NCBI RefSeq assembly: GCF_035084215.1
Contig: NC_090354.1
Location: forward strand, 24,614,001-24,678,000
Direction of reading: 5' to 3'
From: Heptranchias perlo
Taxonomy: Eukaryota
DNA length: 64,000 bases
The notes beneath the pieces are model-generated. The model made no database searches and was not told the DNA's origin. It was given only the letters and a program-made list of their open reading frames with translations. Numbering within the stretch: the first letter of the stretch is position 1; each line of letters starts with the position of its first letter. Both the position numbers and the translations under genes were made by a program. This document shows, one piece after another, positions 1,228 through 51,256 of the stretch.

Positions 1228-1663
1228 ACCCAGGACAGGATCCAGATTGTCCATCAAACACTGCATCACATCAACCAGATCTACAGTATGAACCTGGACT
1301 CAGTCACATGGCCCCAGGACAAGGTGGAAAACTTTCAGCTTCTCTTGGATCGGCAGCTCGAAGAGCTAGAGGAATGTGTCAAGAAACCGGTCTCAGAGTC
1401 CAGGCCGAGGAGAAACGATTCTATTCACAACTACTTCAGGAATCTGGAAACATTTCTCAAACAGAAGGTGGGACAATTGACTGTGTGATTATTGACAGTT
1501 CATTTCACCCAATTTAAATCTGTTCATTCTCTAATGTATTTCCCTGAATATTTCTCTTTTTTAGAGATTCAGTGTCTGCGCCTGGGAAATAATCCGCGCC
1601 GAGACCAGGGCCCGTTTACAACAGATCCTTTTCATAATGGCACAAATCAGAAGAAGGAAGTGA
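1228..1663 (+). CDS. IFN: Type I interferon copy 0 (divergent paralog), 3' part only: join(1228..1467,1565..1663); exons 1-2 lie upstream of the window
   Basis: Acceptor tgctcag|ACC at 1228, donor AAG|gtggga after 1467, acceptor ttttag|AGA at 1565, stop TGA 1661-1663. Translation [80 protein letters not shown] / [46 protein letters not shown] is the type I IFN signature. Confidence 0.93.
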
Positions 1664-2129
1664 AGACTTTGCAAAGACAATAGAGAATGGGAACAATTAA
1701 TATTTATTTAAAAGTCTTTCTATTTATAAAAAATATTTATATTTCAACAGACATTATATTGTAGTGCTGTAATGAGGCGATTTGCAGCCAAGTTTCTGAT
1801 GGAGAACAAGGAATGTCTTGATATTTTTCTATTTTCAATTATTTATTTTAATTTATTGATATTTATTGTTGTGATATGTTCCTGTGATGAATGTTAAATG
1901 TTTCACTGGGGGGAGATTGAGAAAATCCCGTTTCTGTTCCTTCGTTTATGGACTGGCAGCTGCTACAATGAAAATTTTCATTTTAGGTTCGCACTATAGG
2001 GCACCTTATTCACTGGCTGGTTTTCCAGTGTCAGCTCTCTGTACTTGCCCTCCCGGCTGACACTACTTTTGCTCTTCATCTCATCTGACTTCAGTCATAT
2101 TTATTGTCATGATGTCTTCATACAATAAA
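1664..2129 (+). promoter_or_regulatory. 3'UTR with AU-rich elements and poly(A) signal, copy 0
   Basis: ATTTA clusters at ~1700-1870; AATAAA at 2124-2129, duplicated at 2556-2561. Confidence 0.7.
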
Positions 2130-2132
2130 ATG

Positions 2133-2552
2133 TAAGGAATCTTACAACACCAGGTTATAGTCCAACAATTTTATTTTAAAATCACAAGCTTACGGAGATT
2201 ATCCCCTTCATCAGGTGAATGAGTGAAAGATTCTCAAATCGCATATCTTATATTAGGCTGGGACAGCATCACACCAATCAAAAGGTGTCGTTGTTGTTCA
2301 AACAGGCCAGTCACGGAGAACAGCACGTCCGAGTTCACTGGATATACATTGTGTCAATTACACAGACAGAAAGAAAGAGACCCAAATTGCAGTAAGAGAG
2401 AGAGAATATTAAAACACAAAACTTTTTTTCCCCCGTGGATAATCTCCGAAAGCTTGTGATTTTAAAATAAAATTGTTGGACTATAACCTGGTGTTGTAAG
2501 ATTCCTTACATTTGTCCACCCCAGTCCATCATCGGCATCTCCACATCATGGC
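2133..2552. mobile_element. Penelope-like element remnant with 77-bp inverted arms and a 12-bp flanking direct repeat
   Basis: 2128-2204 is the reverse complement of 2437-2513 (1 mismatch). Flanked by TACAATAAAATG at 2121-2132 and 2553-2564. The minus strand reads CTGATGA-AGGGG-ATAAT-CTCC-G(T)AA-GCTT, a hammerhead-like core. Confidence 0.7.
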
Positions 2553-2721
2553 TACAATAAAATGATACAGTTTGTACACAATGTGTAAAGTCAAAAATAA
2601 GAAGAGTAATCTTGAAGATTTTCCAATGTCACATTTAATACTGACTTTAAATGCACTGAATATATAAAATATTATATTTTATGTATATGAAAGGTATTAT
2701 TAATTTTACAATGTTGTTAGC

Positions 2722-2776
2722 TTGGCTCAGCAGTAACGCTCTGAGTCAGAAAGTTGTTGTTTCAAGCCCTACTCCA
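2722..2776 (+). mobile_element. tRNA-derived SINE head fragment (homologs at ~13867-13920, ~28466, ~43111, ~58017)
   Basis: TTGGCTCAG...CTCTGAGTCAGAA.GTTG..G.TTCAAGCCC.ACTCCA has A-box and B-box-like spacing; no full cloverleaf. Confidence 0.55.
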
Positions 2777-2959
2777 AAGCAAAACTATTTCATTGCCATT
2801 CAGCTTTGTGAGGCTCCTTATTCCAGTTGCTGATCTTCCAGTGATAACTCTCTGCTCTCGGTTGCCCTGCCAATACCCAGCTCGGTTACTGGGTTTCAGA
2901 GTGTAGTTGGGATTTCAAGGGTTGGGCTCCAGACCGATGGTCCCTGACTGCCTCCTTCC

Positions 2960-3161
2960 ACCTCCATAACATCACTCGACTCCACCCCGCCTCAGCTCAT
3001 CTGCTGCCGAAACCCTCATCCATATCTTTGTTACCTCTAGACTTGACAGTGCTCTCCTGGTCAGCCTCCCATCTTCCACCCTCCATAAACTTGAGCTCAA
3101 TCAAAACTCTGCTGCCCGTATCCTAACTCGCACCAAACCTTGTTTACCCATCACCCCTGTG
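2960..3161 (+). mobile_element. L2-type LINE RT C-terminal fragment
   Basis: Conceptual translation with frameshifts: LHNI.RL....SSSAAETLIH.FVTSRLD..LL..LPSSTLHKLE..NSAARILTRTK....ITPV. Absent from units 1-4. Confidence 0.7.
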
Positions 3162-3591
3162 TAAACTGTGTTCAAAAATAAATGTTAATTTATTGATATT
3201 AAGAGTTGGGGAATAGACAATATTTTTCTGAACTGGAAACTTTTTATACTGAATGAAAATGAGGGTGTAAATAAATTGTTTTCAATATTATAATTTAATG
3301 GATGATATTCATTTCCTATTTGTGTTTGTCAGATTCTCATACTATAAATGCTCTGGATTCTCCTACCTGCTGCCTGTTACTTTAACTCTTTCTCTGCTAT
3401 ATTACTCTCCCTTCACTGTCTGATTGTCCCTATCCAGTCTAAGCCTGTGATCCTTTTTTGAACCCAATGGACCAGATTTTTGAACTCCAAGACAGTAACA
3501 CAGTTTTACTCTTCTGCTACTCAACTCCTTATTCTTCACCTGAATGAGAGAGGATCAGGGCTGAGGTGTGGAGCAGGAAAGGGTAATTCAA

Positions 3592-4325
3592 AGATAGAAT
3601 CATAGAATGATATAGCTCTGAAGGAGGCTATTCGGCCCATCGTGCCTGTGCCGGCGCTTTGAATGAGCGATCCAATTAGGCCTACTTTCTTTAAGTATTT
3701 ATCCAATTCCATTTTGAAAGTTATTATTGAATCTGTATCCATCACCCTTTCAGGCAGTGCATTCCAGATCATAACAATTTACTGCATAAAAAAAATTCTC
3801 CTCATCTTGCCTCTGGTTCTTTTGCCCATTATCTTATATCTGTGTCCTCTGGTTACCAACCTTCCTGCCACTGGAAACAGTTTCTCCTTATTTAATCTAT
3901 CAAAACCGTTCATGATTTTGAACATCCCTATTAAATCTTCCCTTAATCTTCTCTGCTCTAACAAGAACAATCCCAGCTTCTCCAGCTTCTCCACGTAACT
4001 GAAGTCCCGTATCCCTGATACCATTCTAGTAACTCTCTTCTGCACCCTCTCTAAGGCCTTGACATCCTTCCTGTGTTATGTTGCCAGAATGTCCTCCTGA
4101 TGTCTGTTATTATCCTCCTCACTGTATATACATTTTTGAGTTTCGTGTCATCTGCAAACTTTGAAATTGTGCTCTATATACCCAGGTCCAGGTCATTAAT
4201 AAAATGATAAAGAGCAATGGTCCTAATACTGACCTCTTGGAACTATTGTATATTTCACCCCATTCTGAAAAACAACCATTCACCACTATTCTCTGCTTCA
4301 TATCCATAGCCCATTACATATCCAT
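3592..4325 (-). mobile_element. Decayed CR1 3' fragment
   Basis: ATAGAATCATAGAAT tail (reverse of the ATTCTATG repeat); ORFs [24 protein letters not shown]. Confidence 0.85.
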
Positions 4326-5410
4326 TCTTATAATTGGAGACATTAAATGGAAAGAGACATTCTGAGATACTGAGAGGGGAGGAAGCTTGGTGGATCATAC
4401 GCAGAGTATAGAAGAGGAAATCAGATAATGAGCGGAAAGGACATCAGGCAATGAGTGGGGAGGGGAATGATTGGAGAGTGGGAATGAAAGTCTCTTATGT
4501 GGCATCTTATCCTGCAGCTTCTGAAAATCCATAACCATAACACTGAATACATTCCTTTCTTTATATGTGTGGCTTTGTTGAAAAAGTTAATTAAATTATC
4601 CAAACACAACCTGTCCTTTACTGCCCTTAATGGGCCCACATCTTTTCAAGTGTTCACTAATTTCATCCCAGATTATGAACTCAATATATTGGCCTGTCGC
4701 TGAGTTAAGATTAAAAGGCCTATTATTTCTTGCCACCCTCCAATCCTTTCATCTTTCAGCCACGTTAAAGTTTCAAACTCCCTTCCCCGTGCCCCATTTT
4801 TACTCTCTTTACACTTTCTTTTATATATTTATCTCAATACTTCCATTCTACATCCTCATTTTCAAATGAATAATACTGATGAGGGATCTTTGCCATTTAT
4901 TCACACTCAAGTGTAACATGTCCTCATTTATCTATATGTGCTCCCGGCCCTGCACAGACTATCATTACACTTTTTATTAACAAATTTCACCAGGCTTTAC
5001 CCACAGTCAGTTGATCAATATACATTTTTGATATGCAAGATTGGGAGACTTCAGAAACTCATTCCACAGAATCACCTCATTACCTGGAGTGAACCTTTAC
5101 CTTAGTTTTAGTATTCCCAGAAGGTGAAGAGCTCAAACTCAGCTCCAGATAGTCCCAGTGAGTGGAGACCGGAGTTCCGGCTGTGAATTCTACGCTGTCA
5201 TCCAGCCAGCTACTGGTGTCCGGTGGGTGTGGGTACTCCCCCTTTGTATGGGTTGTGGGAGCCCAAAAAGCCTTCCCGTTGTATAGGATCAATGACATTA
5301 TCAGCTGGTATAAAGGTGGTTACGGACATGGAAAGAATGTACCAGTGCGGCCTGTCAGACTGTGAATCCTTCCACGACTGCACACTATTCCCTCCAATGG
5401 GAGAATGTGA

Positions 5411-6503
5411 ATCATAGAAGTTACAACATGGAAACAGGCCCTTCGGCCCAACATGTCCATGTCGCCCAGTTTATACCACTAAGCTAGTCCCAATTGCCTG
5501 CACTTGGCCCATATCCCTCTATATCCATCTTACCCATGTAACTGTCCAAATGCTTTTTAAAAGACAAAATTGTACCCGCCTCTACTACTGCCTCTGGCAG
5601 CTCGTTCCAGACACTCACCACCCTTTGAGTGAAAAAATTGCCCCTCTGGACCCTTTTGTATCTCTCCCCTCTCACCTTAAATCTATGCCCCCTCGTTATA
5701 GACTCCCCTACCTTTGGGAAAAGATTTTGACTATCTACCTTATCTATGCCCCTCATTATTTTATAGACTTCTATAAGATCACCCATTAACCTCCTACTCT
5801 CCAGGGAAAAAAGTCCCAGTCTGTCTAACCTCTCCCTGTAAGTCAAACCATCAAGTCCTGGTAGCATCCTAGTAAATCTTTTCTGCACTCTTTCTAGTTT
5901 AATAATATCCTTTCTATAATAGGGTGACCAGAACTGTACACAGTACTCCAAGTGTGGCCTCACCAATGCCCTGTACAACTTTAACAAGACATCCCAAATC
6001 CTGCATTCAATGTTCTGACCAATGAAACCAAGCATGCCGAATGCCTTCTTCACCACCCTATCCACCTGTGACTCCACTTTCAAGGAGCTATGAATCTGTA
6101 CTCCTAGATCTCTTTGTTCTATAACTCTCCCCAACGCCCTACCATTAACGGAGTAGGTCCTGGCCCGATTCGATCTACCAAAATGCATCACCTCACATTT
6201 ATCTAAATTAAACTCCATCTGCCATTCATCGGCCCACTGGCCCAATTGATCAAGATCCCGTTGCAATCCCAGATAACCTTCTTCACTGTCCACAATGCCA
6301 CCAATCTTGGTGTCATCTGCAAACTGACTAACCATGCCTCCTAAATTCTCATCCAAATCATTAATATAAATAACAAATAACAGTGGACCCAGCACCGATC
6401 CCTGAGGCACACCGCTGGAAACAGGCATCCAGTTTGAAAAACAACCCTCTACAACCACCCTCTGTCTTCAGTCGTCCAGCCAATTTTGTATCCAATTGGC
6501 TAC
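5411..6503 (-). mobile_element. Young 5'-truncated CR1 LINE with uninterrupted 324-aa RT C-terminal frame (5484..6458)
   Basis: SGVPQGSVLGPLLF.IYINDLD...FADDTK...RPHLEYCVQFWSP...TRGH..K...WN.LP; 3' tail TTCTATGAT on the minus strand. Confidence 0.95.
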
Positions 6504-7379
6504 GAAAATATCACCCTCATGGCCAGAGGCTGCAACTACATCATGACAGTTGAAATATTAAACTTGAATTGCAAATGTGGACATCGCAATTTACAATGGG
6601 AAATGTTGACAATAAACTTCACCAAAATTTGTGACAACAGGAAGTAAGAGTTGTGGCCAAAATATTAGTCGATCTCCCATAGTGATTCACATGGGGAGTT
6701 CAATGGGCAGGTTTGCCCCCATATTCGTCCCCTTTGGATCCCTTACCATTTCATCTTCCCACCACTCCCTCCTCTACCTCCTACCAACTCACTCCCAACA
6801 ATATTTTCATTTGAACTATCTGAGCCAGTGGCCAGATTATGAAATTAGACTGTAAAGTTCAGATCGGCAAGAGATATAAATACCGGCATAGCAGTTTAGA
6901 ATGGAACAAAGTTAACACAAAAGGTTTGACACAAATGTGACATCACGAAGTCAAGTTATTTAGCAGGAAGTGTGCACAAATGTAAATGTATTCATACATT
7001 ATAGAAAATGTGCTCATAAGAGTCCTTGCTATTTCCTTGTGTGTTGCCCACCAGTGTTTTTCATACTCCCTCCTAAACTTCCTGATACCCCTTTCGCCTC
7101 CCTTCTGAACTATTAATAATTCTTACAGCATTAGCCTAATATTATAGACTTTATAAAATTTTGGTTTTACCTAAAGCTCTCTCCATAACCATTCACCCCA
7201 GGATTGGATGGGCAATTAAAATTGCAACACAGTAACTCCTCAATGTGATTGTTTAATTCAAGCCCAAATCACTCACTGCCGCTGTCCACAGGTGGTGCTG
7301 GTGGGATTCGGTCCCAGATTCACTCATGGAGAAGTTTTTGTTTGTAGTTACAGCTGAGAGTGATTTTGTGATGTTTCCC

Positions 7380-8436
7380 CAGTAACCGGGGTATCCCGGA
7401 TATCCCAAACCTTTTCCCAGCTCCCCCTCACTCCCTCTCAGGGTGATCCGTTCTGTTTACAAACACTCCTCAATTTCGGAAATGACGAGACTCGTCACTT
7501 TCCCTGAGGCACTTTCGCTTTCGGTGAAATTGACACAAGGCTCATTTTCACAGACAAACTGACACGGACACTTTCCCGGGAGAGAGAAAAGAAAGAAACG
7601 ATGAAAGAAAAGGAGTCGGTTCTTCCTTCGGATTCAGAGTCCGAGCAGATCAAATATTCTTGGAGAACAAAATCTCAAGAAACCTCCAAAAAAACAACCG
7701 AGAAATGAGGAACTTTTTATACTTAAAGAGCAGAATCTCCGACAGGGGAATCGGACAGACAGCATCAGACCGTGACCCTGCACTGTGAGCCGGGCTCTCT
7801 GCAATGTCCAGCCCGCGAAGTGTGAACAGTAAAAGCACGATGTGAGCACACCGGGGAGAGAGTGGATTTAAAAGGGAATCGCTCTCCATGGAGCCGAATG
7901 TCAGCACTAAAAGCCGCGGCACCGGGATCACCGCTGTCGGTGTCACTATAACCCGGATTATAAAATACAGCCCCCAATACATGTCCGCACTCCCCCAATA
8001 CAGACTCTGCCCCCGACACCACTTCAGTGCTGCCTTGATTCGAATCCAGACAACATTGAGCTGGGACCGAGCGCTGGTTGTGATCTTCGATGGGGGATTT
8101 TCCAGTCGCTGGTTCACGAATCTCCAGCTTTTAGATTCCTCACCTCAGAAAGGAACCGCACAAATTATTGCTCTCCTGCGGCCAGATTTCACTTTTCGAA
8201 TGTAATCCAAACATTCCCAGTCTCTCCTCTTAAAGCCGACAGCATGGCAGTGAGAGCTCCCAGCAGTATCCAGCCACACACCCACAGGACTCGGCAGCTC
8301 AGGCAACCGCTCCGGGATCACAAGCGGCGACATTTCGACTTCCAGAGTTTCATTCAGAACCGTTTTCGGAGCTGAACCGCGATCCGCTCAGTTTCTCATC
8401 CTTCAAATCGGCGTTTTACCCATGGGTCGGTTGAAC
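7380..8436 (+). promoter_or_regulatory. IFN promoter/5' region, copy 1 (IRF/ISRE-like and NF-kB-like sites)
   Basis: GGGGTATCCC 7388-7397 and GGGATTTTCC 8094-8103 match GGGRNWYYCC. ACTTTCGCTTTC 7511-7522 (reverse GAAAGCGAAAGT) and TTTCACTTTTC 8187-8197 (reverse GAAAAGTGAAA) are IRF-E/ISRE-like. GAAA repeats at ~7586-7612; TATAAAA 7959-7965; TTAAAG ~8230; locally CpG-rich. Confidence 0.75.
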
Positions 8437-11400
8437 ATGGATTTGGCGAGTGTTTGGAGATTTTGGATTGTGTGGGTCTTGTTTTCCGGGACCCTGAGTC
8501 TGGGCTGTGAGAGGCTGCAGTTACAGCAAGTTCTCAACAGAGAGACTCTGAGCAAACTGAATGAAATGGTGAGTTTAAACAGCATCAAAAGTCGGAACCG
8601 AACTATACAGGGTCTGTTTGTTATGAAAAGTTATATCAGGAGAAATAGTTTGGGGTTTTGTAACTTTGTCCAATTAATATCAACTGAGTCTTCAGTATGA
8701 ATTTGACGTCTTTATGGTTAGAGTGACTCTACTGTTACACTCGGTACACTCATTGATAGTGTCCTACAGCAAGAGTTCCCTGAAACCTGGAGGGGTAATT
8801 AGACCCCTGGTTGGAACAGAGGAATTAGACCTTGAGGCGACAGGGAGAATCGGGTAAAGAAGAGATGGGAATCAGGGGCTGAGTGGAGAGGGAACGTGAT
8901 CCTGATGGAAGACGTGGAATCAGACCATGAGGGGAGAAGGGAACTGAAAAACTGATGAACTGGGCAATCTTATATTGAGGGGAGGTTGAGTCAGATTCTA
9001 TAGGTTGACTCTTTTGAGTGGAGAAAGGAAGTGAATGACTGAAGGGGGGGGGGGGGTAATCTTATATTGAGGGGGGAGATTGAATCAGACCCCGGGGGAG
9101 TTGAATCAGATTCTAAGTGAAGGAGGGAATCAGTTCTGAGGAGAGAACGAAAACCGAACAGTGAGGAGTGGGGTACCCTGATATTAAGGAGGGAATCAGA
9201 TCTGAGGAGAGAATGGGAACTAGATACTGAGGAGACGGGAAGTCATGAATTGAGGAAAGAGAGGGAATCAGATATTGAGGGGTGGGAGAAATCGAGATTG
9301 AGGGGAATCAGATATTAAGGGAAGAGGGGAATGATGGTTTGAGTGGGAAACAGAAACGGAGGGATGGTGGAGATGAGACCAAATGGAGAGTGGGAGAATC
9401 AGATACAGAGGAGAGGGGAAATCAGGCCCTGGGTGGGGGGGGGGGGGTGGCACACCCTGATATAGAGAGGGGAGAATCAGAGACTGAGGGTAGAGGGAAA
9501 CCAATATTGTCTGGAAAGGGAGAATCTGATGTTGAGGGAAGGGAGCAATCAGACCCCGAGGGTAGAAAGGAAATGAAACACTGAAACACTGAGAGGGGTA
9601 ATTATATTGCGGGAGGGTGAATCAGACTCGGCGGGGGTGGGGGTGGGAGAACAGAAGAGACACTGAGGGGAGAGGGGGACACCCACAGGACTCGGCAGCT
9701 CCGGCGGTCGCTCAGTTTCTGATCCTTCAGATCGGCTCTTTACCCTGGGTCGTTTGAGCATGGTTTTGGCGAGTATTTGGAGATGTTGCATTGTGTGGGT
9801 CTTGTCCTGGACCTTGAGTCTGGTCTGCGAGAGGCTGCAGTTACCGCAAGTTCGAAACACACAGAATCTCAAGAAACTGAATGAAATGATGTGTTTAAAC
9901 AGCATGCAGAGCCGGATTCGAAACACACAAGGCCGGTTTGTTGTAAAAACTCATATCAGGAGAAATAGTTTGGCGTTTTATAACTTTATTCAATTAAAAG
10001 TCACTGATTCTCCTGTATTTCTCTCTGGGCTGTCTGTGACGGTGATGATCTTCTGTTTCAGGGCGGTCCCTTTCCCCGTCAGTGTGTTAAAGAGAGGCTC
10101 TCGCTGAAAACCAAGTCCTTGAACCTGGTGAAACTTTCAGGGGGTTTACAGGTGAGCGAACACTGGATATTATTTTATATTATTCAAGCAAGAGTTTGCT
10201 AGAAACTATGAGTAAGATCAACAATCTCATCAGAACTTTAATCAGGAAATTCAAACCCCGTGTTGGCCGCCCATTGATGTGAAAATGGCAGAAATATTCA
10301 CTCGCTCCAGCTCACTCTCTCTATCTCACTCCCTCTAATTATCTTACTCCGTCTAACCTCCTCAATCCATCCAACCATCTCACTCCTAATAATTCCATTT
10401 CCTTTAACTATCTGACTCCCTGTATTCATCTCACTCCGTCTTATCATCTCACTCCTAAACTGCGATGATTGGCTATGTGGTATGCATCATCACGGGCAGG
10501 TTAAATCATAGATTCATAGAATGATCCAGCACAGAAGGAGGCCATTTTGCCCATCGTGCCTGTGTCAGGTCTTTGAAAGAGCAATCCAATTAGTCCCACT
10601 CTCCTGCCCATTCCCCACAGCCCTGAAAAATATGCCCCTTCAATTGATACAGTTCCATTTTGAAAGTTATCATTGAATCTGCTTCCACCACCCTTTCAGG
10701 CAGTGCATTCCAGATCATAACAACTCGCTGCATAAAAACATTTCTTATCATCTCGCATCTGGTTCATTTGCCAATTGCCTTTAATCTGTGCCCTTTAGTT
10801 ACTGACCCATCTGCCACTGGAAAAGTTTCTCCTTATTTACTCTATCAAAACCCTTTCAACACCTCTATTAAAACTTACCTTAACCATCTCTGCTCAAGAG
10901 AACAACTCCCGATCTTCTAGTCACTCTACATACCTGAAGTCCCTCATCCCTGGTACCATTCTAGTCAATCTCTGCTGCACCATCTCTAAGGTTTTGGCAT
11001 CCTTCCGAAAGAGTGGTGCCCAGAATTGGACACAATATTACAGCTGGGGCTGAAACATTGATTTATAAAGGTAAAACACATTGTCCTTGCTTTTGTACTC
11101 TATGCATCTGTTTTTAAAGCTCAGGATCCTGTAAACTTTTTTAACAGTCTTCTCAACTTGTCCTGCCATCTCAAAGATTTGAGTACGTAAACCCCCAGGC
11201 CTCTCTGTTCCCGTCCCCCTTCAAAATTGTAACATTTAATTTATATTGCCTCTCCTCATTCATCCTACCAAACTGCATCACTTCACACTTCTCTGTGTTA
11301 AATTTCATCTGCCATGTGTCTGCCCATTTCACCAGTTTGTCTATGTTGTCCTGAAGTCTGTTACTATCCTCCTCACTGTTTCCTACAGTCTTGAGTTTCA

Positions 11401-13430
11401 TGTCATCTGTACACTTTGAAGTTATGCACTATATACGCAAGTCCAGGACATTAAAATATATCAATAAGAGCAGCGGTCCTAACACTGACTCCTGGGGAAC
11501 ACCACTTTACACTTCCATCCAGTCTGAAAAACAACCGTTCACCACTGCTCTCTTCTTTCTGTACCTTAGCCAATTTTACATTCATGCTGCAACTACCCCC
11601 TTAATCCCATGAGCTTCAGTTTTGTTAACAAGTCGACTATGTGATACTTTATCAAATGCCTTTTTAAAGTCCATATACACATCAACCACACGACCCTCAT
11701 CAACTCTCTCTTACTTCATCAAAGAACTCAATCAGGTTACTTAAACACAATTTGCCTTTAATAAATCCATGCTGCCTGTCATTTATTAACCCATTTTTTT
11801 CCAAGTGACAATTAATTTTGTCTAATTTTATTGTCTCTAAAAGTTGCCCCATCACCATTGTTAGGCTGACTGGCCTGTTGTTGCCGGGTTTATCCCTCTC
11901 CCCCTTTTTTGTTACATTTGCAATCCTCCAGTCCTCTGGCATTGCTCCCATATCTAAGGAGGATTGGAAGATTGTGGCTGGAGCCTCCGTTATCTCCAAC
12001 CTTACTTCCCTCAGCAACCTAGAATGCATCCCATCTGGACCGGGTGACTTCTCTATTTTAAAAGCTGCTAACCTTTTAAGTACCTCCTTTTAATCTATTT
12101 TTATCCTATCCAATTTCTCTACTCCTTCCTCCTTTACTTTGATATTGGCAGCACCCCCTTCTTTTTTGAAGAAAGATGCAAAGAACTCGTTCAGTCCATC
12201 AGCCATTCCCTCTGCCACCACAAGATCTCCTTTTTTGGTCCCTGATCAGTTCCACCATTCTATTAACTACCCTTTTACTATTTATTTGCTTATGAAAGAC
12301 TTTTATGTTACCCATTAATCTGTTCCAATATACTCTCTTTGCCCCCTTTTTTTCCTTTTTCAGTCCTCCCCTGTACTCTGTATTCAGCTTGGTTCTCCAC
12401 TTTATTATCATACTGGTAGTTATAATAAGCCTCCTTTTTTTGTTTAAGTTTTATCTCCATATCTTTAGCCATCCAGGGACCTCAAGCTTTGGATGCCCTT
12501 CCTTTCCCCCAAATGGGAATGTGTCGAGTCTGTATCCAAACTATCTCCTCTTTGAAGGCCCCGATTGATCATTTACTGTTTTACCTGCCAATCTTTAAAT
12601 CCAATCCACCTGGGCCAGATCCCCTTTCAACTCACTGAAATTAGTTCTCCTGCAGTTGAGTATTTTCATGTTTCATTGTTCCGTGTCCTTGTCCATAACC
12701 GCTCTAAAGGGGTTAAATTAGCCCACAGCGGAATGTGGTAGGAACCAGTTATGTATTAACCCAGTAATATTGCCAACATCAATCCATGTGCCGTAGCTTA
12801 AATTTTTGAAAAAGAAAAAACATCTCTCGGCTGTGGTTTTAAATTCAGACACTTTACACATTTACACCATCATTAAAATGGGAAATAGCTGAGCTGCGGT
12901 GATGGGCTGTTAGGTTTGCCCAATATCGGGCCGGTTAAATAGGAACAGACCCCCTCTAATGTCCTTGTGTGTATTTTGCTCAGACCCAGGACAGGATCCA
13001 GATTGTCCATCAGACACTGCGTCACTTCATCAAGATCTACAGCATGAACCTGGACTCAGTCACATGGCCCCAGGACAAGGTGGAAAACTTCCGGCTTCTC
13101 CTGGATCGGCAGCTCGAAGAGCTGGAGGAATGTGTCAAGAAACCGGGCTCAGAGTCCAGGCCCAGGAGAAACGCCGCCATTCACAAATACTTCAGGAAAC
13201 TGAGAAAATTTCTCAAACAGAAGGTGGGACAATTGATATTTGACTGTTTGGTTACTGACAGATAGTTCATTTCACCCAATTTAAATCTGTTCATTCTCTA
13301 ATGTATTTTCCTGAATATTTCTCTTTTTCAGAGATTCAGTGTCTGCGCCTGGGAAATAATCCGCGCTGAGACCAGGGCCCGTTTACAACAGATCCTTTTC
13401 ATAACGGCACAAATCAGAAGAAGAAACTGA
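8437..13430 (+). CDS. IFN: Type I interferon copy 1, 186 aa: join(8437..8568,10062..10151,12984..13223,13332..13430)
   Basis: Exon 1 [23 protein letters not shown]^[21 protein letters not shown]|gtgagt (in-frame upstream ATG at 8422 adds MGRLN). Exon 2 ttcag|[30 protein letters not shown]|gtgagc. Exon 3 TQDRIQ...ELEECVKK...[14 protein letters not shown]|gtggga. Exon 4 [32 protein letters not shown]. All introns phase 0 GT-AG; signal peptide ending SLG/C; 4 mature Cys; CAWE motif. Confidence 0.95.
8790..9677 (+). repeat. Purine-rich degenerate minisatellite (GGAATCAGA-containing units, poly-G runs) in intron 1; also ~23290-24272, ~37890-38865, ~52950-53825
   Basis: Repeated G(G/A)GAATCAGA..(T)GAGG motif about every 25 bp; long G runs; ~95-bp sub-duplication in units 2 and 3 only. 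Confidence 0.75.
9760..9888 (+). pseudogene. Duplicated IFN exon 1 (exon 1b) with lost splice donor, unit 1
   Basis: [43 protein letters not shown] aligns to exon 1. It is followed by ATGTGT where exon 1 has GTGAGT. Flanking 5'UTR and intron homology spans ~9678-10012. Confidence 0.85.
10305..10460 (+). repeat. CT-rich ~19-bp degenerate tandem repeat (ATCTCACTCC) in intron 2; present in all units
   Basis: Recurrent atctcactcc / atcttactcc / atctgactcc. Confidence 0.6.
10505..12700 (-). mobile_element. Decayed CR1 in intron 2 (also ~25103-27300, ~39693-41890, ~54653-56850)
   Basis: AATCATAGATTCATAGAAT tail; RT fragments [32 protein letters not shown]. Confidence 0.9.
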
Positions 13431-13688
13431 AGACTTTCCAAAGACATGTTTAATAGAGACTGGCAACAATTAATATTTATTTAAAAGACCATCTATTTAT
13501 TAAAAAAAATTATATTTTAAAAGATGTTACCTTGTGTTGCTGTAAACAAGCGATTTGCAGCTAGGTGACTGATGAAGAAGAAGGAATGTCTTGATATTTT
13601 TCTATATTTGTTTATTTATTTTAATTTATTGATATTTATTGGTGTAATATTTATCTTGATGAAATGTTAAAGGTTTGACTACAATAAA
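13431..13688 (+). promoter_or_regulatory. 3'UTR with AU-rich elements and poly(A) signal, copy 1 (equivalents end at AATAAA 28284, 42929, 57835)
   Basis: Multiple ATTTA/TTATTTATT motifs (e.g. ATATTTATTTAAA, TTATTTATTTTAATTTATTGATATTTATT); AATAAA at 13683-13688. Typical cytokine mRNA instability elements. Confidence 0.8.
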
Positions 13689-14549
13689 ATTATACACTTT
13701 TTACACAATGTGTAAAGACAAAAATGAGAAGAGTAAACATGAAGATTTTCCAATGACTTGTTTAATTCAGACTAAGAATGATGATACTTTATGTTAAAGG
13801 CACTGAATTTCTAAAATATATTTTATGTACATGAAAAGTATTATTAATTTTACAATGTTGTCAATTTAGCTCAGCGGTAACACTCTGAGTCATAAGGTTG
13901 TTAGTTCCAGCCCCATTCCATAGGGAAACTGTTCCATTGCCATTCAGCTTTGTGAGGCTCCTTATTCCAGTTGCTGATCTTCCAGTGACAACTCTCTGCA
14001 CTGGATTGCCCTGCCAATACCCAGCTCGGTCACTGGATTACAGAGTGAAGTCAGGATTTCAAAGGTTGGGCTCCAGACTGATGCCCCCTGACCTTAACCC
14101 TGACCCGCTCTGACCTTTTAGTTTCTGCTCTCCCAGCGGCCAGCACTTCAACTCGTCTCAGGGTCATCTTAATTTATTGATATTTATCATCGTGATCTCT
14201 TCAACTAATGAAATGTTAAAGTTTTATACAATGCGTAATGTGAGTTCAAAAAGAAATATTAATTTATTGATATTTATTAAGAGTTGGGGAATAGACAATG
14301 TTTTTCTAAACTGAAAACTTTTTATACTGAATGAAAACGTGTGTGAAAATAAATTGTTTTAATGATAACACTTTTACTGGAGTGATATTCATTTCCCATT
14401 TGTATCTGTCAGTTTCTCATTATAAATGCTCTGGATTCTCCTCCCTGCTGCCTGTTACCGTGACTCCCTCTCCTCTGTATTATCTTCTCTCCACTGTCTG
14501 ATTGTTCCTCCCCGATCAAAGCATGTCAACCCCATTTGAACCCAATTTA

Positions 14550-15150
14550 CCATAAGGACATAAGAAATTAGAACATAAGAAATAGAAGCTGGAGTAGACC
14601 ATACAGCCCCTCGAGCATGCTCCGCCATTCAGCATGGCTGATCTTTGACATCAACTCCATTTTCCCGCCCGATCCACATATCACTTTACTCCCTTGAGTC
14701 CAAAAATCTATCTATCTCAGCCGTGAATATACACATCCTCTGCCCTCTGGGTTAGAGAATTCCAAAGATTCACAACCTTCCAAGTGAAGAAATTCCTCCT
14801 CATCTCAGTCCTAAATGCCCGACCCCTTCACCTGCAACTATGCCCCGTCCTTCTAGACTCTCCAGCCAGGGGAAATAACCTCTCAGCACCTACCCTGTCA
14901 AGCCCCCTCAGAATCTTATGTGCTTCAATGAGAGCACCTCTCATTCTTCTAAAATCCAGAGAGTACAGCCAGCCAACCTGAAAATGACCCATTTATACCT
15001 ACTCTCTGTTTTCTGTCTCTTCATCAATCATCCATGCTTACTAATATATTACCCCCAACCCTATGAACCCTTATCTTGCGTAACAACCTTTTAGGTGGCA
15101 CCTTATCGAATGCCTTTTGAAAATACAAATATATTACATCCACTGGTTCC
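14550..15150 (-). mobile_element. CR1 3' fragment of a different subfamily (ACATAAGA tail), in all units
   Basis: ACATAAGAAATTAGAACATAAGAAATAG tail, then reverse-strand CR1 3' sequence (GAAGAAATTCCTCCTCATCTC, CTACCCTGTCAAGCCCC). Confidence 0.7.
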
Positions 15151-15444
15151 ACTCTATCTCCTAGATACTACCACAGTTTTTCTTTTCAGCTATTCAACCC
15201 AATATTCCCTATTCTCCCTCTAAATGAGAGATGATCGAGCCTGAGGTGTTGAGCAGGAAAGGGGGAATTGATTCATAGAAGCATACAATCATAGAATCAT
15301 ACAGTACAATAGAGGCCATTCAGCCCATCATGCCTCTGCCAGCCCTTTGGTAGTGATATCCAATTAGTCCCATGCTCCAGCCCTTTCCCCATAGCCCTGA
15401 AAATGTTATTACCTTAAATCTGGGAGCTCTGATTACCGACTCTT

Positions 15445-18400
15445 AGAATCATATAGAATGGTTACAGCACAGAAGGATGCCATTCGGCCCATCGAACCAG
15501 TGCTGGCTCTTTGTAAGAGCAATCCAGTTAGTCACATTCCCCCACTCTTTCCCCATAGCCCTGCAAATTTTTCCCTTCAAGTATTTATACAATTCCTTTT
15601 TGAAAGCTATGATTGAATCCACTTCCACCACCCTTTTCGGCAGCGCATTCCAGATCATAACAACTCGCTGCATAAAAATAGCTTTCCTCATGTCACCTTT
15701 GGTTCTTTTGCCAATCACCTGAATCTGTATCCTTTGGTTCTCGACCCTTCTGCCAATCGGAACTGTTTCTTTTTATTTACTTTATCTAAACCCTTCATGA
15801 TTTTGAATGTTTCAATCAAATATCTGCTCCAAGGGGAACAACTGCAGCTTCTCCAGTCTATCCAGGTAACTGAAGTCACTCCTCTCTGGAACCATTCTGG
15901 TAAATCTTTCTGCACCCTCTCTAAGGCCTTCACATCCTTCCCAAAGTGCGGTGGCCAGAATTGGACACAATACTCCAGTTGTGGCTGAAACAGTGTTTCA
16001 TAAATGTTCAACATAACATCCTTGCATTTGTACTCTATGACTCTATTTTTAAAGTTCAGGATCCCACTTGCCTTTTAAACCACTTTCTCAAGCTGTCCTG
16101 CCACCTTCAAAGATTTCTGCACATATACCTCCAGGTCTCTATATTCTTGCTCCTCTTTTAGAATTGTACCGTTTAGTTTATTTTGCCTCTCCTCATCTTT
16201 CTTGCCAAAATGCATCACTTTGCACTTCTCTGCACTAAATTTCTTCTGCCATGTCTTCGCCCATTCCACCAGTCTGTCTATGTCCTTTTGAATTCTATTA
16301 TTATCCTCCTCCCTATTTCCCACACTACCAAGTTTTGTGCCATCTGCAAATTTTGAAATTGGGCCCTGTACACCTAAGTCCAAGTCATTAATATATATCA
16401 AAAAAGCAGTGGACATAATACCGACCCCAGGGGAACACCACTGTATACCTTCCGCCAGTCCAAAAAACAACAGTTCACCACTACTCTCTGTGTCCTGTCA
16501 CTTGGCCAATTTTGTATACATGCTGATGCTGCTCCTTTTATTCCATGGGCTTCAGTTTTGCTGACAAGCCTATTATGTGGCACTTTATCAAGTGCCTTTT
16601 GAAAGTCCATATACACAACATCAATCGCATTGCCCTCGTCAACCCTCACCAGCCTTTCTAGTAGCTCCTCTTTATCAATTTTTAGCCCATCCAGTATCGC
16701 AACTACCTCCTCTCCTACTGTGACTTTGGCAGCATCTGCTTCCTTGGTAAAGACAAATGCAAGGTTCTCATTTAGAACGTGGCCATGCCCTCTGCCTCCA
16801 TGTGTAGATCTCATTTTTGGTCCCTAATTGACTCCATCCCTCATCTTATTACCCGTTTACTATTTATATGCCTATAGAAGATTTTGAATTCCCTTTTATG
16901 TTAGCCGCTAATCTGTTCTCATACTCTCTCTTTGCCCCTCTTATTTCCTTTTTCACTTCTCCTCTGTACTTTCTATATTCCACCTGGTTCTCTCTTGTAT
17001 TATCAACCTGACATCTGTCATACTGTCTATTTCTGTTTCATCTTACTCTACCTCTTCTGTCACGCAGGGAGCGCTGGCTTTGATTTCCCTACCTTTCCCC
17101 CTCGTGGGAATGTACCAAGACTGTACCCGAACCATCTCCTCTTTAAAAGTCGCCCATTGTTCAATTACAGTTTTGCCTGCCAATCTTTGATTCCAATTTA
17201 TCCGTCCAGATCCGTTCTCAACCCACAGAAATTGGCCCTCCTCCAGTTAAGTATTTTTAATCCAGATTGCTCCTTCTCCTTTTCCAAAACTAATCTAAAC
17301 CTTATGATCATTGTTCCTTAGATGATCCCCCACTAAAATTTACTCTACTCGACCCACTTCATTCCCTAGAACTAGATCCAGCAATGCCTCCTTCCTCGTT
17401 GGCCAGAAATATACTGATCAAGAAAGTTCTTCTAAACACACTTAAGAAATTCCATCCCCTCTTTGCCATTTAAACTATTACTATCCCACACTATATTAGG
17501 ATGTTTGAAGTCCCCATTGTCACTACTCTATAGTTCTTCCACCTCTCTGTAATTTCCCTGCAAATTTCCTCCTCTATATCATTCACACTAGTTGGCGGCC
17601 TAAAGAATACACCCAGTAGTGTAATGGCACCTCTATTGTTTATATCTCTAACCAAATAGATTCTGTCCTTGACCCCCTCAAGGACATCCTTTTTCTCCAG
17701 CACTGCAATATTCTCCTTAATCATACTGCCACCAATCCCCCACCCCACCTCCTTTTCTTACTTCAGATCTTTCCTGAACACCGTGTATCCAGGAATATTT
17801 AATACCCAATCCTGCCCTTTTTTGAGCCAGGTCTCCATTATCGCCACTACATCATATTCCCATGTGACTATTTGCACCTGCAGCTCACCAACCTTATTTA
17901 CCAGGCTTCGTGCCTTCACACACACACACACACTCTCAACCTATCTTAGACCTTCTCATCTTATCTCTTATACCGATCCCACCTAACACTGTACTATTTC
18001 TTACTCTAGTTCTATCTGTCACTCACAATCCTTTGTGCACTTTGTTTCTCCTTTCTAATGCTTCTTGCTGGTGACCATCACCTTGCAAAATTAGTTTAAA
18101 CCCTCCCCCACAGCACTGGTGACCCACCCCATGTGGACATTGGTCCCAGGTCTATTGAGGTGCAATCTGTTCATCTTGAACAGTTCCCTCCTGCCCCAGA
18201 ACTGGTCCTGATGCCCCAAGAATCTGAAGCCCTCCCTCTTGCACCATATCTCTAGTCATGCATAAACTTGCCTTATCTTCCTCTTTCTGTATTCACTGGC
18301 GCATGGCACTGGGAGTAATCCAGAGATTACTACCTTTGAGGTCCTGCTTTTTAACTTCCTCCCTCGATCCTGAAACTCTGACCGCAGGACCTCATCCCCT

Positions 18401-19320
18401 TTCTTTCCTTTGTTGTTGGAACCCACACACGGACCACGACTTCTGGCTGTTTCTATTCCCCCCACAGAATCTTCTGCACCCTCTCCATGATGTCCTTCCT
18501 GGTACCAGGGAGGCAACACAACATGTGGGACTCAAGTCGGCGATCACAGAAACGACCGTCTGTCCCATTGACTATCGAATCCCCGATGACTACTGCAGTT
18601 CTACACTTCACTCTGCCCCACTGTGCAATCCTTTGCCCCATGGTGCCACGCTCAGGACTGCACTCCTTTGAGGTGTAGTCACCCTCACTGGTATTCAATC
18701 CTGAATTGAATACCAGTGAGAGTGCCACACACCCAGAAGATTCTTGCACTGCCTGCCTCTTCCTATCAGTTCGGTCGGCCACCCACTTGCTATCCTGAAC
18801 TCTCTGTACCTGCAGAGTGACCACCTGCTGCAATGTACGATCCATGAAACCTTCAGCCTTCCTTATGCTCTGCAGTGACTCCAGCTGCCTCTCAATCTCA
18901 GAAACCCTCAGCTTAAGCTCGAGAAACTAGAGGCATTTCCTGCACGTGTGGCCCTCAAGGATACATGAAGCATCCTGAAACTCCAACACGGCACAGGGAT
19001 TGCAGGCAATGAGTCTCAACTGTCAGTCCATTATATTTAGAAAGCTTCATTTTGCAAACTCCCTTTGGATACTTGCTTATTGTTAATTTACTTATTGTTA
19101 CTTATCCCAATTAACCTACCCTTAATCCGTGGTCACTCAGAGCTCCTCCTCTCTGTTCACTGTGACGTCACTGTGATGTCACTCCCTCTGTTCTTCATGA
19201 ATGGGAAAGGGTTCCTCCCCTGGTGCTCAGCACCGCTTCTCACAACTCTGCTCCGCTCCTGCTTTTGTACTGATACCTGGGGCCTCCCATGGTGCTCAGC
19301 ACGTCTTCTTCTGACTGAGT
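15445..19320 (-). mobile_element. Near full-length decayed CR1 LINE (ORF1 esterase-like + APE endonuclease + internally deleted RT), unit 1
   Basis: ORF1 AVVIGDSIV.GTD..FC....CCLPG (GDSL/SGNH-like); endonuclease LGVFFRPP...VVTMGDF.HPNI.W; RT DVVYMDFQKA.DKVPH.RL, SKFADGTKL, LEYCVQFW; 3' tail AGAATCATATAGAAT. The 5' boundary is approximate. Confidence 0.88.
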
Positions 19321-19810
19321 TATTCATCTATTTGGAGATAATGGGGGGAAAATTGGATAAGGGCCGTTTTTGGGTGCAAGTAGTGCGATGCGCTATTACC
19401 CCACCCCCAATGACCCCTGAGCAGGCAGGACATAAGTTTCTGCCGGCCGGAGGACTCACCTGCAATCAACGTTCCATTCCGGGCCTTGGACCTGCAATCA
19501 ATGCAATTTGCATTTTCCACCACTGGGGCGAGCTCAATCTCTGAAAGGGAGGATGTTTCTTCGAAATCTCTGAAAGTAGTTGGTATCTGTTATTTGCTGA
19601 AAATAACAGTCTGCTGTCTGCATGGAGTCTGAACAGAGTTCAGAGGTCGCACACATAAAATACAGGTGCAGGTCCCATCCTTATGTTTACACACTGTAAG
19701 TTATGTTAAAACATTGAATAAAAGTTGGGCACAACTAAATCCAACATCCTAAGATCTGCACTTCGGACCTCACCAATCTGCCAATCTGAGTTGGTACCAG
19801 GCCTGCAAGA

Positions 19811-20039
19811 ATGCGTGCACCAAGGTTCTCTGCTGATGCACTAGAGACCTTGGTGCAAGGGGTGGACAGAAGGAGGGACATCCTATACAAGTGGGGGAGG
19901 GGGGGTGCAAGAAGCACTCCAGACATATATCCAAAGGCAGTGGGAGACAGTGGGGGACGAATTTAATACCAGGCACAAAACATCATGAACATGGATGCAG
20001 TGCAGGAAGAAGTTCAATGCTTTGACATGAGTGGTCAAG
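19811..20039 (+). mobile_element. Myb/SANT-like DNA-binding domain remnant, probably from a PIF/Harbinger transposon (also 34412-34640, 49050-49281, 63966-end)
   Basis: MRAPRFSADALETLVQGVDRRRDILY...QWETVGDEFNTR...*TWMQCRKKFNALT*VVK|gtgagt, with TGA stops and a poly-G frameshift. Confidence 0.7.
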
Positions 20040-20299
20040 GTGAGTGAGGCCAACTGTCTAGTGGCATCCCCTACGAACTGCACCACGCACTACACCCCTC
20101 ATCACCCACATACCTACAAACTCTTTCCATCTCTACTCAATACTTCCAATCAGATGCTTCCTCTCACCCTTAAACATTACCACTGTCGCAAGCCGCCCAC
20201 CCACAACTCACAGGCCACACACACTGGTAGCTATTCAACCATGACAGGCACATCAACCAGACATCCCGCTTTCTTGTAGGAGAAGGTAGCGCATACCAG

Positions 20300-21035
20300 G
20301 AGGCAGCAAGTGGGAGTGGCATTTAGCCCCTCAAGCCTGTTCCACCATTCAATGAGATCATGGTGGACCTGTGACCTAACTCCATGTACCTGCCTTAGCC
20401 TCATATACCTTCATACCCTTGGTTCACAAAAATCTATCAATATCAGCTTTAACATTCACAAGTGAGCTGGCATCAACTGCCGTTTGCAGAAGAGCGATCC
20501 AAACATCTCCCACCCTTTGCGTGTAGAAGCATTTCCTAACTTCACTCCTGCACACTCAGGCTCTAAATGTTAGGCTATGTCCCCGGATCCTAGTATTCAA
20601 GGCTAGGAGACCTCCAAAAACAGTTACAAATGTCTCGGCAGCAAGAAGCAATAATCCAGCCACTAACCTGTAAATCCTGCATAGTCCCTTTAAATAGCAA
20701 TCGAGGGGGGTCCTCCAGGCTTCAGCACGTCTGCCATTGGAAACAGTTTCTCCACATTTATTCCATAAGAACCGTTCATGATTCTGAACATCTATATTAT
20801 TCTTCTCTTAACCTTCTCTGCTCTAAGGACAACAACCCCAGCTTCTCTAGTCTCTCCATGTAACTGATGTCCCTCATCCCTGATACCATTCTAGTCAATC
20901 ACCACTGCACCCTCTCTAAGACCTTGACGTTCTTCTTAAGTATGGTGCCCAGAATTGGACATAATTCTCCAACTGAGGCCTAACCAGTGATTTATAAAGG
21001 TTCAGCATAACTTTCTTACTTTCATATCCATTCTA
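20300..21035 (-). mobile_element. Decayed CR1 3' fragments (in units 1-3)
   Basis: Reverse-strand CR1 3' motifs (CCCCTCAAGCCTGTTCCACCATTCAATGAGATCATGG; GGAAACAGTTTCTCC; CCCAGAATTGGACA). Confidence 0.7.
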
Positions 21036-21879
21036 AAATTGAAGGCATTAAGTAGAAAAGGAAATTCCGAGATACCTAGTGGGGAGGGGATTTGGAGGAT
21101 CAGTCAGGGACGATAGAAGGGAAAATGAGACAATGAGTGGAAGGGACATCAGGCAATGAGTGGGGAGGGGAATCAGTGGAAAGTGGGAATGAAAATCACT
21201 TGTGTGACATTTTATCCTACACATTTTGAAAATCTATAACTATAACTCTGACTACATTTCTTTATTTATATCTGTGACTTCCTTGAAAAAGTTAAATAAT
21301 TATCCAAACACAACCTGTCCATTACAGATTCATGATGACTGCCCCGAATGACCCCATGTCTTTTCAAGTATTCATAAATTTCTTCCCAGATTGTGGACTC
21401 CATAAATTGGCCTATAGCTGAGTTAAGAAGAAAGGGACTTACTATTTCATGCCACCCTCCAATCCTTTCATCTTTCAGCCACATTAACGTTTCATCCTCC
21501 GTGTGTGTTGCCCACCAGTGCTTTTCAGACTCCCTTTTACACTTCCTGATCCCCTTTTCGCCTCCCTTCTGAACTTTAAATAATTATTAAAACATTAGCC
21601 TATTTTATAGGCAATTACTACATTTCAGTTTTACTCTTAGCTCTCCCGATAACCATTGATCCCCAGCCTTAGAAGGTCAATCAAAAACTAAACGATTTGA
21701 TGAAAAGGTTTTCACCAAAACAGTATCTCTTTAAGTTGCTGTCATGTGATTGTTTAATTCAAGCCCAAATCACTCACTGCCGCTGTCCACAGGTGGTGCT
21801 GGTGAGATTCGGTCCCAGATTCACTCATGGAGAAGTTTTTGTTTGTAGTTACAGCTGAGAGTGATTTTGTGATATTCCC

Positions 21880-22936
21880 GAGTAACCGGGGTATCCCGGA
21901 TATCCCAAACCTTTTCCCAGCTCCTCCTCACTCCCTCTCAGGGTGATCCGTTCTGTTTACAAACACTCCTCAATTTCGGAAATGACGAGACTCGTCACTT
22001 TCCCTGAGGCACTTTCGCTTTCGGTGAAATTGACACAAGGCTCATTTTCACACACAAACTGACACGGACACTTTCCCGGGAGAGAGAAAAGAAAGAAACG
22101 ATGAAAGAAAAGGAGTCGGTTCTTCCTTCGGATTCAGAGTCCGAGCAGATTAAATATTCTTGGAGAACAAAATCTCAAGAAACCTCCAAAAAAACAACCG
22201 AGAAATGAGGAACTTTTTCTACTGAAAGAGCAGAATCTCCGACAGGGGAATCGGACAGACAGCATCAAACCGTGACCCTGCACTGTGAGCCGGGCTCTCT
22301 GCAATGTCCAGCCCGCGAAGTGTGAACGGTAAAAGCACGATGTGAGCACACCGGGGAGAGAGTGGATTTAAAAGGGAATCGCTCTCCATGGAGCCGAATG
22401 TCAGCACTAAAAGCCGCGGCACCGGGATCACCGCTGTCGGTGTCACTATAACCCGGATTATAAAATACAGCCCCCAATACATGTCCGCACTCCCCCAATA
22501 CAGACTCTGCCCCCGACACCACTTCAGTGCTCCCTTGATTCGAATCCAGACAACATTGAGCTGGGACCGAGCGCTGGTTGTGATCTTCGATGGGGGATTT
22601 TCCAGTCGCTGGTTCACGAATCTCCAGCTTTTGGATTCCTCACCTCAGAAAGGAACCGCACAAATTATTGCTCTCCTGCGGCCAGATTTCACTTTTCGAA
22701 TGTAATCCAAACATTCCCAGTCTCTCCTCTTAAAGCCGACAGCATGGCAGTGAGAGCTCCCAGCAGTATCCAGCCGCACACCCACAGGACTCGGCAGTTC
22801 AGGCAACCGCTCCGGGATCACAAGCGGCGACATTTCGACTTCCAGAGTTTCATTCAGAACCGTTTTCGGAGCTGAACCGCGATCCGCTCAGTTTCTCATC
22901 CTTCAAATCGGCGTTTTACCCATGGGTCGGTTGAAC
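21880..22936 (+). promoter_or_regulatory. IFN promoter, copy 2
   Basis: Same motifs at offset +14500. Confidence 0.75.
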
Positions 22937-50818: not shown

Positions 50819-51256
50819 CATAGGGAGAGGTTAGACAGACTGGGACTTTTTTCCCTGGAGAGTAGGAGGTTAAGGGGTGATCTTGTAGAAGTCTATAAAA
50901 TAATGAGGGGCATAGATAAGGTAGATAGTCAAAATCTTTTCCCAAAGGTAGGGGAGTCTATAACGAGGGGGCATAGATTTAAGGTGAGAGGGGAGAGATA
51001 AAAAAGGGTCCAGAGGGGCAATTTTTTCACTCAAAGGGTGGTGAGTGTCTGGAACGAGCTGCCAGAGGCAGTCGTAGAGGCGGGTACAATTTTGTCTTTT
51101 AAACAGCATTTGGACAGTTACATGGGTAAGATGGGTATAGAGGGATATGGGCCAAGTGCAGGAAATTGGGACTAGCTTAGTGGTATAAACTGGGCGACAT
51201 GGACATGTTGGGCCGAAGGGCCTGTTTCCATGTTGTAACTTCTATGATTCTATGAT
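50819..51256 (+). mobile_element. Young 5'-truncated CR1 insertion unique to the unit 3/4 junction
   Basis: Near-identical reverse complement of 5411-5837; ends TTGTAACTTCTATGATTCTATGAT; absent at the homologous sites ~21585 and ~36186. Confidence 0.93.

Follow-up and report, generated by a model that had tools for sequence, protein, structure and literature searches.

The window analysed here is a stretch of 64,000 nucleotides of Heptranchias perlo (assembly GCF_035084215.1, contig NC_090354.1, positions 24,614,001 to 24,678,000, forward strand). Its self-comparison reveals four tandem units of approximately 14.6 kb, about 98.5% identical to one another; before them lies the 3' end of an older paralog, here called copy 0. 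The protein encoded by each unit is assembled from four exons of 44 (49 when counted from an upstream ATG), 30, 80 and 32 codons joined at phase-0 GT-AG junctions. Exon 3 scores 49.8 bits against Pfam PF00143 (cut-off 26.8, E = 5.7e-13), all 10 of its 10 PDB matches are named interferons, and 61 candidates led to 33 homologues, every one a named cartilaginous-fish protein; the closest named ones are Heptranchias P0004, P0003 and P0012, with 95–96% identity. Each exon contributes one cysteine (Cys1 to Cys4, in order) and exon 4 contains a CAWE motif. On all sequence features examined, the unit genes belong to the type I interferon (IFN) family of cartilaginous fish, for which four exons and three introns, loss of intron 3 and four cysteines have been described (PMC5332411). 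They are alike in the four coding exons, phase-0 junctions, four cysteines, CAWE motif, PF00143 signature and tandem clustering, but differ in that intron 1 here holds a second exon 1, named exon 1b as opposed to the working exon 1a, and a probable remnant of exon 2. This extra first exon is the subject of the present analysis.

As the original prediction stated, the second copy of exon 1 lies shortly before exon 2 in all four units, at a distance of 173 bp in unit 1 and 175 bp in units 2–4, and the donor GTGAGT of exon 1a has become ATGTGT in exon 1b (positions are collected in Table 1 and refer to unit 1 unless stated otherwise). Across 314 columns the identity of the two blocks is 82.2%. 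By region it amounts to 23/23 at the 5' edge, where 9679–9701 corresponds to 8278–8300, 45/51 in the 5' untranslated region (UTR), 112/129 for the coding sequence and 101/130 for the adjoining intron. The intron homology, at first put at some 120 bp, probably does not end with these 130 bp but goes on at a weak level along the rest of the intron and into exon 2. Exon 1b keeps the family-conserved Met, at 8437 in exon 1a, and the A at −3 and G at +4 of its ATG context; compared with 1a, it is without the in-frame ATG of 8422 (a 1-nt difference), one codon and approximately 77 nt of 5'UTR. Its 43-codon frame is indeed open in all four units; as these are about 98.5% identical, this counts as a single event. 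Considered as a sign of selection, the open frame was rejected, since 39% of 5000 simulated exons with 10% neutral substitution retain ATG and frame. Read in frame, the 1b 5'UTR (9709–9759) is similar to the extended N-terminus of the Narcine model P0050 (Ser-Asp-Pro), suggesting that UTR conservation reaches as far as rays and that some ancestral bases survive in 1b. Among the units, 8 sites are variable in the 1b intron versus 3 in the 1a intron.

The 1b donor is calculated to pair with the 5' end of the U1 small nuclear RNA (snRNA) at −1.3 kcal/mol, compared with −8.8 to −11.1 kcal/mol at the three live donors of unit 1, among them −9.2 kcal/mol for GTGAGT at 8569. No strong in-frame GT donor was found: beyond the 1b ATG, unit 1 has nine GT sites in frame, at −1.3 to −4.4 kcal/mol, and the GTs nearest to the end of 1b (9891 and 9893) are out of frame. 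Read-through from 1b into exon 2 was also considered and rejected: gaps of 173 and 175 nt are not multiples of three and so put it out of frame, with stops after 115, 93, 56 and 93 residues in units 1 to 4, respectively. Compared with 1a, the coding part of 1b shows 13 non-synonymous and 4 synonymous differences, with a dN/dS of 0.85 that is based on these 17 differences only. Eight of the 12 differing 1b residues occur in 0/34 shark and ray exon 1s of the B/C type, a term we use for exon 1s whose cleavage site reads Gly-Cys-Glu/Asp. Changes unseen in these 34 relatives include Gly to Val and Leu to Arg, at positions where Gly and Leu are each present in 34/34, as well as a Pro in helix A. The predicted −1 cleavage residue of 1b is Val, Gly being found elsewhere, and the earlier designation of 1b as a signal-peptide exon was in this respect overstated; the hydrophobic stretch remains (Kyte-Doolittle 10-mer value 1.99 vs. 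2.05). A homologue search with 1b gave no candidate, no database protein sharing three 5-mers with it, and brought up no annotated protein that uses 1b, which is weak evidence.

With a dead donor, neutral-looking coding changes and an out-of-frame read-through, 1b reads as a pseudoexon, and on this sequence evidence it is very probably non-functional, whether it arose by fusion or by internal duplication. Neither its dN/dS nor its donor appears to be that of a functional alternative first exon. One could still suppose that 1b is a live, selected first exon that joins a second signal peptide to exon 2 through a non-canonical donor, given its open frame, strong ATG context and preserved hydrophobic stretch. 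Against this, the donor no longer has its +1 G and the nearest GTs are out of frame, the Val at −1, the Pro in helix A and the Leu to Arg change are unseen in the 34 relatives, and an open frame is expected by chance; we therefore find this supposition hardly credible.

Two less conventional ways of using 1b deserve attention. A candidate GC donor at 9769 is in frame and pairs with U1 snRNA at −6.7 kcal/mol; the same GC site is present in 1a, and the route would yield three residues followed by exon 2, with loss of helix A and Cys1. A candidate cryptic acceptor within the truncated 5'UTR (exon start 9731) is preceded by 11/15 pyrimidines, compared with 10/15 at exon 2; each intron has only 2 candidates that reach 10/15 pyrimidines or more, this one among them. 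A further AG lies shortly before it, and its use would lead to a stop after 8 codons in the 1a frame. The sole Met in exons 2–4 is residue 51 of 142, and no route is predicted to yield the whole mature peptide minus its signal. The flank upstream of 1b is a minisatellite with 72% purine and a CpG observed/expected ratio (o/e) of 0.36, and the motif scan of the 900 bp before 1b returned no NF-kB or TATA match, which agrees with the original description of a GA-rich flank rather than a promoter. What that description leaves out are IRF-core-like words at 9566–9578, present in 4/4 units. The 900 bp contain four such cores; 5/500 dinucleotide shuffles attain as many, as do 39 and 46 of 1000 Markov resamples, and this modest excess speaks against a silent 1b. 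The 900 bp upstream of 1a hold three IRF cores, a count matched in 47/500 shuffles and thus not above them, but they carry in addition three NF-kB-like matches, TATA-like words and a CpG o/e of 0.86.

Taken together, these features could mean that 1b is used, either through a weak IRF-responsive start in the GA tract and the GC donor at 9769, giving a signal-less isoform, or by splicing from 1a to 9731, tuning IFN output through nonsense-mediated decay (NMD). The enriched IRF-like cores, the in-frame GC site, the pyrimidine content and rarity of the 9731 acceptor and the retained ATG context fit such a use, and non-secreted IFN isoforms are made by teleosts (PMC3828176, PMC5127012). However, the GC isoform would be without helix A and Cys1, whereas the trout isoforms iIFN1a/b extend the N-terminus of the mature peptide (PMC3828176); moreover, the GC site is found in 1a too, the 1b flank has neither an NF-kB or TATA match nor a high CpG o/e, the coding changes are neutral-looking, a further AG lies just before the acceptor, and conservation across units is uninformative at 98.5% identity. 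We consider the use of 1b unlikely, and the alternative-isoform idea of the original prediction found no support, there being no strong in-frame donor and no in-frame read-through.

The splice pattern that we infer runs from 8568 to 10062, skipping 1b, and the resulting mRNA of exons 1a, 2, 3 and 4 is predicted to encode a normal secreted IFN of 186 residues (191 from the upstream ATG). The putative promoter of unit 1 holds NF-kB-like motifs at 7388/7397 and 8094, IRF-like motifs at about 7513, 7587 and 8187, and a TATA-like TTAAAG at 8230. Exon 1a, 93% identical to exon 1 of Heptranchias P0004/P0012, contains in-frame ATGs at 8422 and 8437; the upstream one (8422–8436) adds 5 residues and may be a peculiarity of the species, and the Heptranchias models begin at the second Met (186 residues).

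The region behind exon 1a offers further insight into the history of the gene. The first copy of intron 1 ends in CAC where the live acceptor has CAG, with 10/15 pyrimidines before 8742, and this CAC is a probable dead acceptor; in its tail the copy matches the 1b intron at 24/41 positions. It is followed by a segment of about 49 bp that resembles the beginning of exon 2 (8742–8790), which is cut off by the GA-rich tract and stands at native spacing, 173 bp behind the 1a donor, as the live exon 2 stands behind 1b. In four scoring schemes, with homologous loci excluded from the controls, 3, 4, 3 and 20 of 3000 segments of the window score as high as intron tail plus segment. A frameshift-tolerant codon score, taken as the best over 45 exon-2 sequences, is equalled in 12/2000 segments and in 5/2000 shuffles. 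On the other hand, a pooled profile (50 of the 75 named proteins) is not significant (11/200, 22/200, 18/300 and 16/300 controls), a tblastn search with the 75 named proteins does not see the segment, and its end point was chosen after viewing the alignment. The best scores come from ray sequences and do not assign it to a paralog type. On balance, we think it probable that 8742–8790 is a decayed remnant of exon 2. A decayed exon 2 behind 1a implies that 1a once had an exon 2 of its own; if the remnant is real, the gene consists of two exon 1-intron 1-exon 2 cassettes whose complementary losses leave a single splice path.

Homology beyond the remnant into intron 2 is unsupported, since 256–616 of 3000 controls reach the score. 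The GA-rich minisatellite at the junction contains 11 copies of a GAATCAG core in 8869–9619; units 2 (23429–23674) and 3 (38029–38272) carry in it a 94-bp tandem expansion of 2.6 copies that units 1 and 4 are without. Considered as an expanded patch of the upstream flank of the downstream gene (21080–21200 and 4370–4490), the tract gives scores reached by 10–17 and 4–14 of 300 Markov controls, 58–60 as compared with 54–56 for minus-strand purine tracts. Specific pairing of the intron-1 GA and intron-2 CT tracts, which would loop out 1b and exon 2, was rejected as its energy of −129.7 kcal/mol is matched in 15/30 shuffles.

The anatomy, the dead donor, the neutral-looking decay and the reading frames are observed directly; the origin of the arrangement is a matter of interpretation, and a fusion of older paralogs seems to us more likely than an internal duplication. 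Fusion genes arise by unequal crossover in tandem arrays. Here, a deletion or unequal crossover would have joined the 5' part of one tandem paralog with the body of the paralog following it, from which it had already diverged. The upstream cassette would have kept promoter, exon 1a and donor and lost its acceptor and exon 2, of which 8742–8790 would be the remnant; the downstream cassette, starting inside the 5'UTR and hence without promoter, would have kept its acceptor and exons 2–4 and lost its donor. Exon 1b would then represent the downstream gene's own first exon, displaced by the fusion; amplification of the fused unit to at least four copies would have followed, and transcription would start at the 1a promoter, with 1b skipped on splicing.

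The comparison of exon-wise trees proposed with the original prediction was carried out on proteins, using the 44 of 75 named proteins with a full recognisable exon 1 (alignment of 44 columns) and leaving out 31, mostly partial or oddly modelled, as well as one unnamed record. In the exon-1 tree, 1b groups with the exon 1s of four sawshark (Pristiophorus) proteins (support 86/89) and 1a with Heptranchias P0012 and P0004 (94/86). The four differing 1b residues that do occur in relatives (Ile6, Cys9, Cys10 and Thr35) are found together in Pristiophorus P0006, P0013 and P0017; the nearest sequence to 1b is P0006 with 11 differences, compared with 12 for 1a, and both Cys arise by chance in 0.1–0.4% of simulations for that codon pair. 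The Jukes-Cantor (JC) distance between 1a and 1b is 0.13 in the UTR, 0.15 in the coding part and 0.27 in the intron, and that between copy 0 and the units 0.14–0.22 in seven non-coding blocks, with lower values in intron 3 (0.05) and the intron 2 tail (0.08). The resemblance of these distances, together with the grouping of 1a with P0012, the partner of copy 0 in exons 3–4 (Shimodaira-Hasegawa-like approximate likelihood ratio test, 97), fits the recruitment of 1a from a neighbour.

Several observations weigh against this fusion. Approximately unbiased (AU) tests reject neither 1a and 1b as sisters (p = 0.129) nor a clade of 1a, 1b and the Heptranchias sequences (p = 0.321), and the sawshark grouping of 1b is lost without the two Cys columns. 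Cys10 is also present in 3 ray sequences, 7/34 in all, so that convergence does occur at position 10. Exon 2 groups with Heptranchias P0004/P0012 (92) and not with Pristiophorus. Heptranchias P0003 has a divergent exon 1, yet is unit-like in exons 3–4; such incongruence between exons points to gene conversion among paralogs, which could fake the 1a/1b tree pattern and weakens the exon-tree test itself. Finally, the intron tail and remnant have a JC distance of 0.58 (10 transitions, 25 transversions), compared with 0.15 for the exon and 0.27 for the first 130 bp, a higher divergence than either simple model predicts. The chimeric origin proposed at the outset is modestly favoured by the trees, by a divergence like that between copy 0 and the units and by the probable exon 2 remnant, without the sisterhood of 1a and 1b having been rejected.

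An internal tandem duplication from the 5'UTR to the middle of exon 2, with complementary decay and later homogenisation of 1a with neighbouring paralogs by gene conversion, which would make 1a look closer to them than it is by descent, would equally leave 1b and the exon-2 remnant at the junction, and 1b would be just as dead. The second copy begins abruptly inside the 5'UTR (9679), like a duplication breakpoint, one junction accounts for everything, conversion is evident from P0003, the AU tests are compatible with this origin, and exons duplicated in tandem are frequent in metazoan genes, 7–17% (PMC3342872). It does require the Cys-Cys match to Pristiophorus to be convergence, with the above chance of 0.1–0.4% before allowing for many sites, and predicts a remnant divergence not exceeding that of the intron (0.27), whereas 0.58 is observed. 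We regard this origin as possible but doubtful. A more elaborate proposal, very unlikely in our view, takes 1b to be a relic, kept as a regulatory element, of the first exon of an ancient IFN paralog of squalomorphs that is still active in sawsharks: the minisatellite would provide an IRF-responsive start and/or the 9731 acceptor would give non-secreted or NMD-bound transcripts, the donor having been lost under selection against a 158-nt poison cassette spanning 9731–9888.

Table 1. Positions of the features discussed, numbered from the first nucleotide of the window
Feature	Position	Strand	Remarks
Copy 0, older paralog	exon 3, 1228–1467; exon 4, 1565–1663	+	exons 1–2 beyond window edge
Unit 1	1a ends 8568; 1b 9760–9888; exon 2 10062–10151	+	
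Putative promoter region, unit 1	7378–8277	+	motif scan; CpG o/e 0.86
Exon 1a, part homologous to 1b	8278–8568	+	5'UTR and signal-peptide/helix-A exon
First intron 1 copy	8569–8741	+	173 bp; ends CAC where live acceptor has CAG
Pseudo-exon 2a, probable decayed exon 2 remnant	8742–8790	+	28/45 aligned identity; cut off by GA-rich tract
GA-rich minisatellite at junction	8791–9678	+	length varies between units
Truncated 5'UTR copy of 1b	9679–9759	+	cryptic acceptor CAG 9728–9730
Pseudoexon 1b	9760–9888	+	43 codons, ATG kept; dead donor ATGTGT 9889–9894
Second intron 1 copy, live acceptor	9889–10061	+	173 bp (175 in units 2–4)
Exon 2	10062–10151	+	30 codons, Cys2
Exon 3	12984–13223	+	80 codons, Cys3; PF00143; 95–96% to Heptranchias proteins
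Exon 4, coding part	13332–13430	+	CAWE motif, Cys4, stop
Unit 2	22922–24748	+	1a 22922–23068; 1b 24355–24483; exon 2 24659–24748
Unit 3	37522–39339	+	1a 37522–37668; 1b 38946–39074; exon 2 39250–39339
Unit 4	52582–54299	+	1a 52582–52728; 1b 53906–54034; exon 2 54210–54299

Other features of the array were noted. The spacer between copy 0 and unit 1 (1663–7240) is homologous in blocks to the spacer between units (13430–21750), at JC distances of 0.14–0.21, and identity rises abruptly to about 98.6% near 7243, which places the left breakpoint of the recent amplification immediately before the promoter. A 429-bp segment occurs twice in opposite orientation with 98.4% identity (5409–5837 and 50822–51250), both copies being intergenic, upstream of units 1 and 4, which suggests insertion of a young mobile element. 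Large interspersed-repeat copies, approximately 72–77% identical, lie in intron 2 (10504–12708), in the spacer (15441–17299) and, at the matching position, in intron 2 of copy 0 (1–1176); they resemble reverse-strand fragments of long interspersed nuclear elements. Exons 3–4 of unit 4 (57136–57582) carry the most protein differences of any unit, including Ile to Met after the CAWE motif. The Heptranchias model P0060 (120 residues) starts at a Met inside exon 2, without exon 1, perhaps a sign that the first exon of a further copy is unusable. An Rfam scan of 1–22900 gave 0 matches, and tblastn with the 75 named proteins revealed no convincing IFN exon relic beyond the exons listed.

Extra 5' sequence at an intron-containing type I IFN gene, in principle open to a different use, is also known from the teleost IFNa/IFN-phi1 genes. 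The alternative transcripts of teleosts are made from upstream promoters or through 5' introns, leave the mature peptide whole and are reported for two-cysteine group I genes (PMC3828176, PMC5127012), and the intracellular IFNs of trout come from 5' intron splicing that extends the mature peptide (PMC3828176). In the shark, by contrast, the added sequence duplicates exon 1, is situated downstream of the live exon and is devoid of a donor; since the mature peptide is lengthened and not shortened in the trout isoforms, the shark anatomy is at odds with the teleost analogy. Tandem exon duplication offers another likeness, with a duplicated exon-intron cassette of which one copy is silenced by splice-site loss. 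Duplicated exons are generally tied to mutually exclusive splicing (PMC3342872), whereas the losses in the shark are complementary and leave a single splice path. Among the literature titles and abstracts searched, subscription journals and supplements aside, none describes a duplicate exon 1 arrangement and none deals with interferon in Heptranchias.

Exon 1b is best read as a rearrangement fossil in a tandem array of immune genes. IFN1 genes show rapid birth and death and their history is debated (PMC6640115), and the arrangement matters chiefly to specialists of interferon evolution. It implies no new protein or mechanism unless transcripts that use 1b exist; should 1b have been kept as a regulatory element, it would be the sharks' independently evolved counterpart of the teleost switch between secreted and intracellular IFN. 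For annotation, 1b is a trap, an intact-looking first exon 173 bp from exon 2. If the fusion of older paralogs is correct, the locus would provide a sequence record of an IFN gene swapping promoter and first exon within a tandem array, and would point to exon-level mosaicism in shark IFNs, such that whole-protein trees mix exons of different histories.

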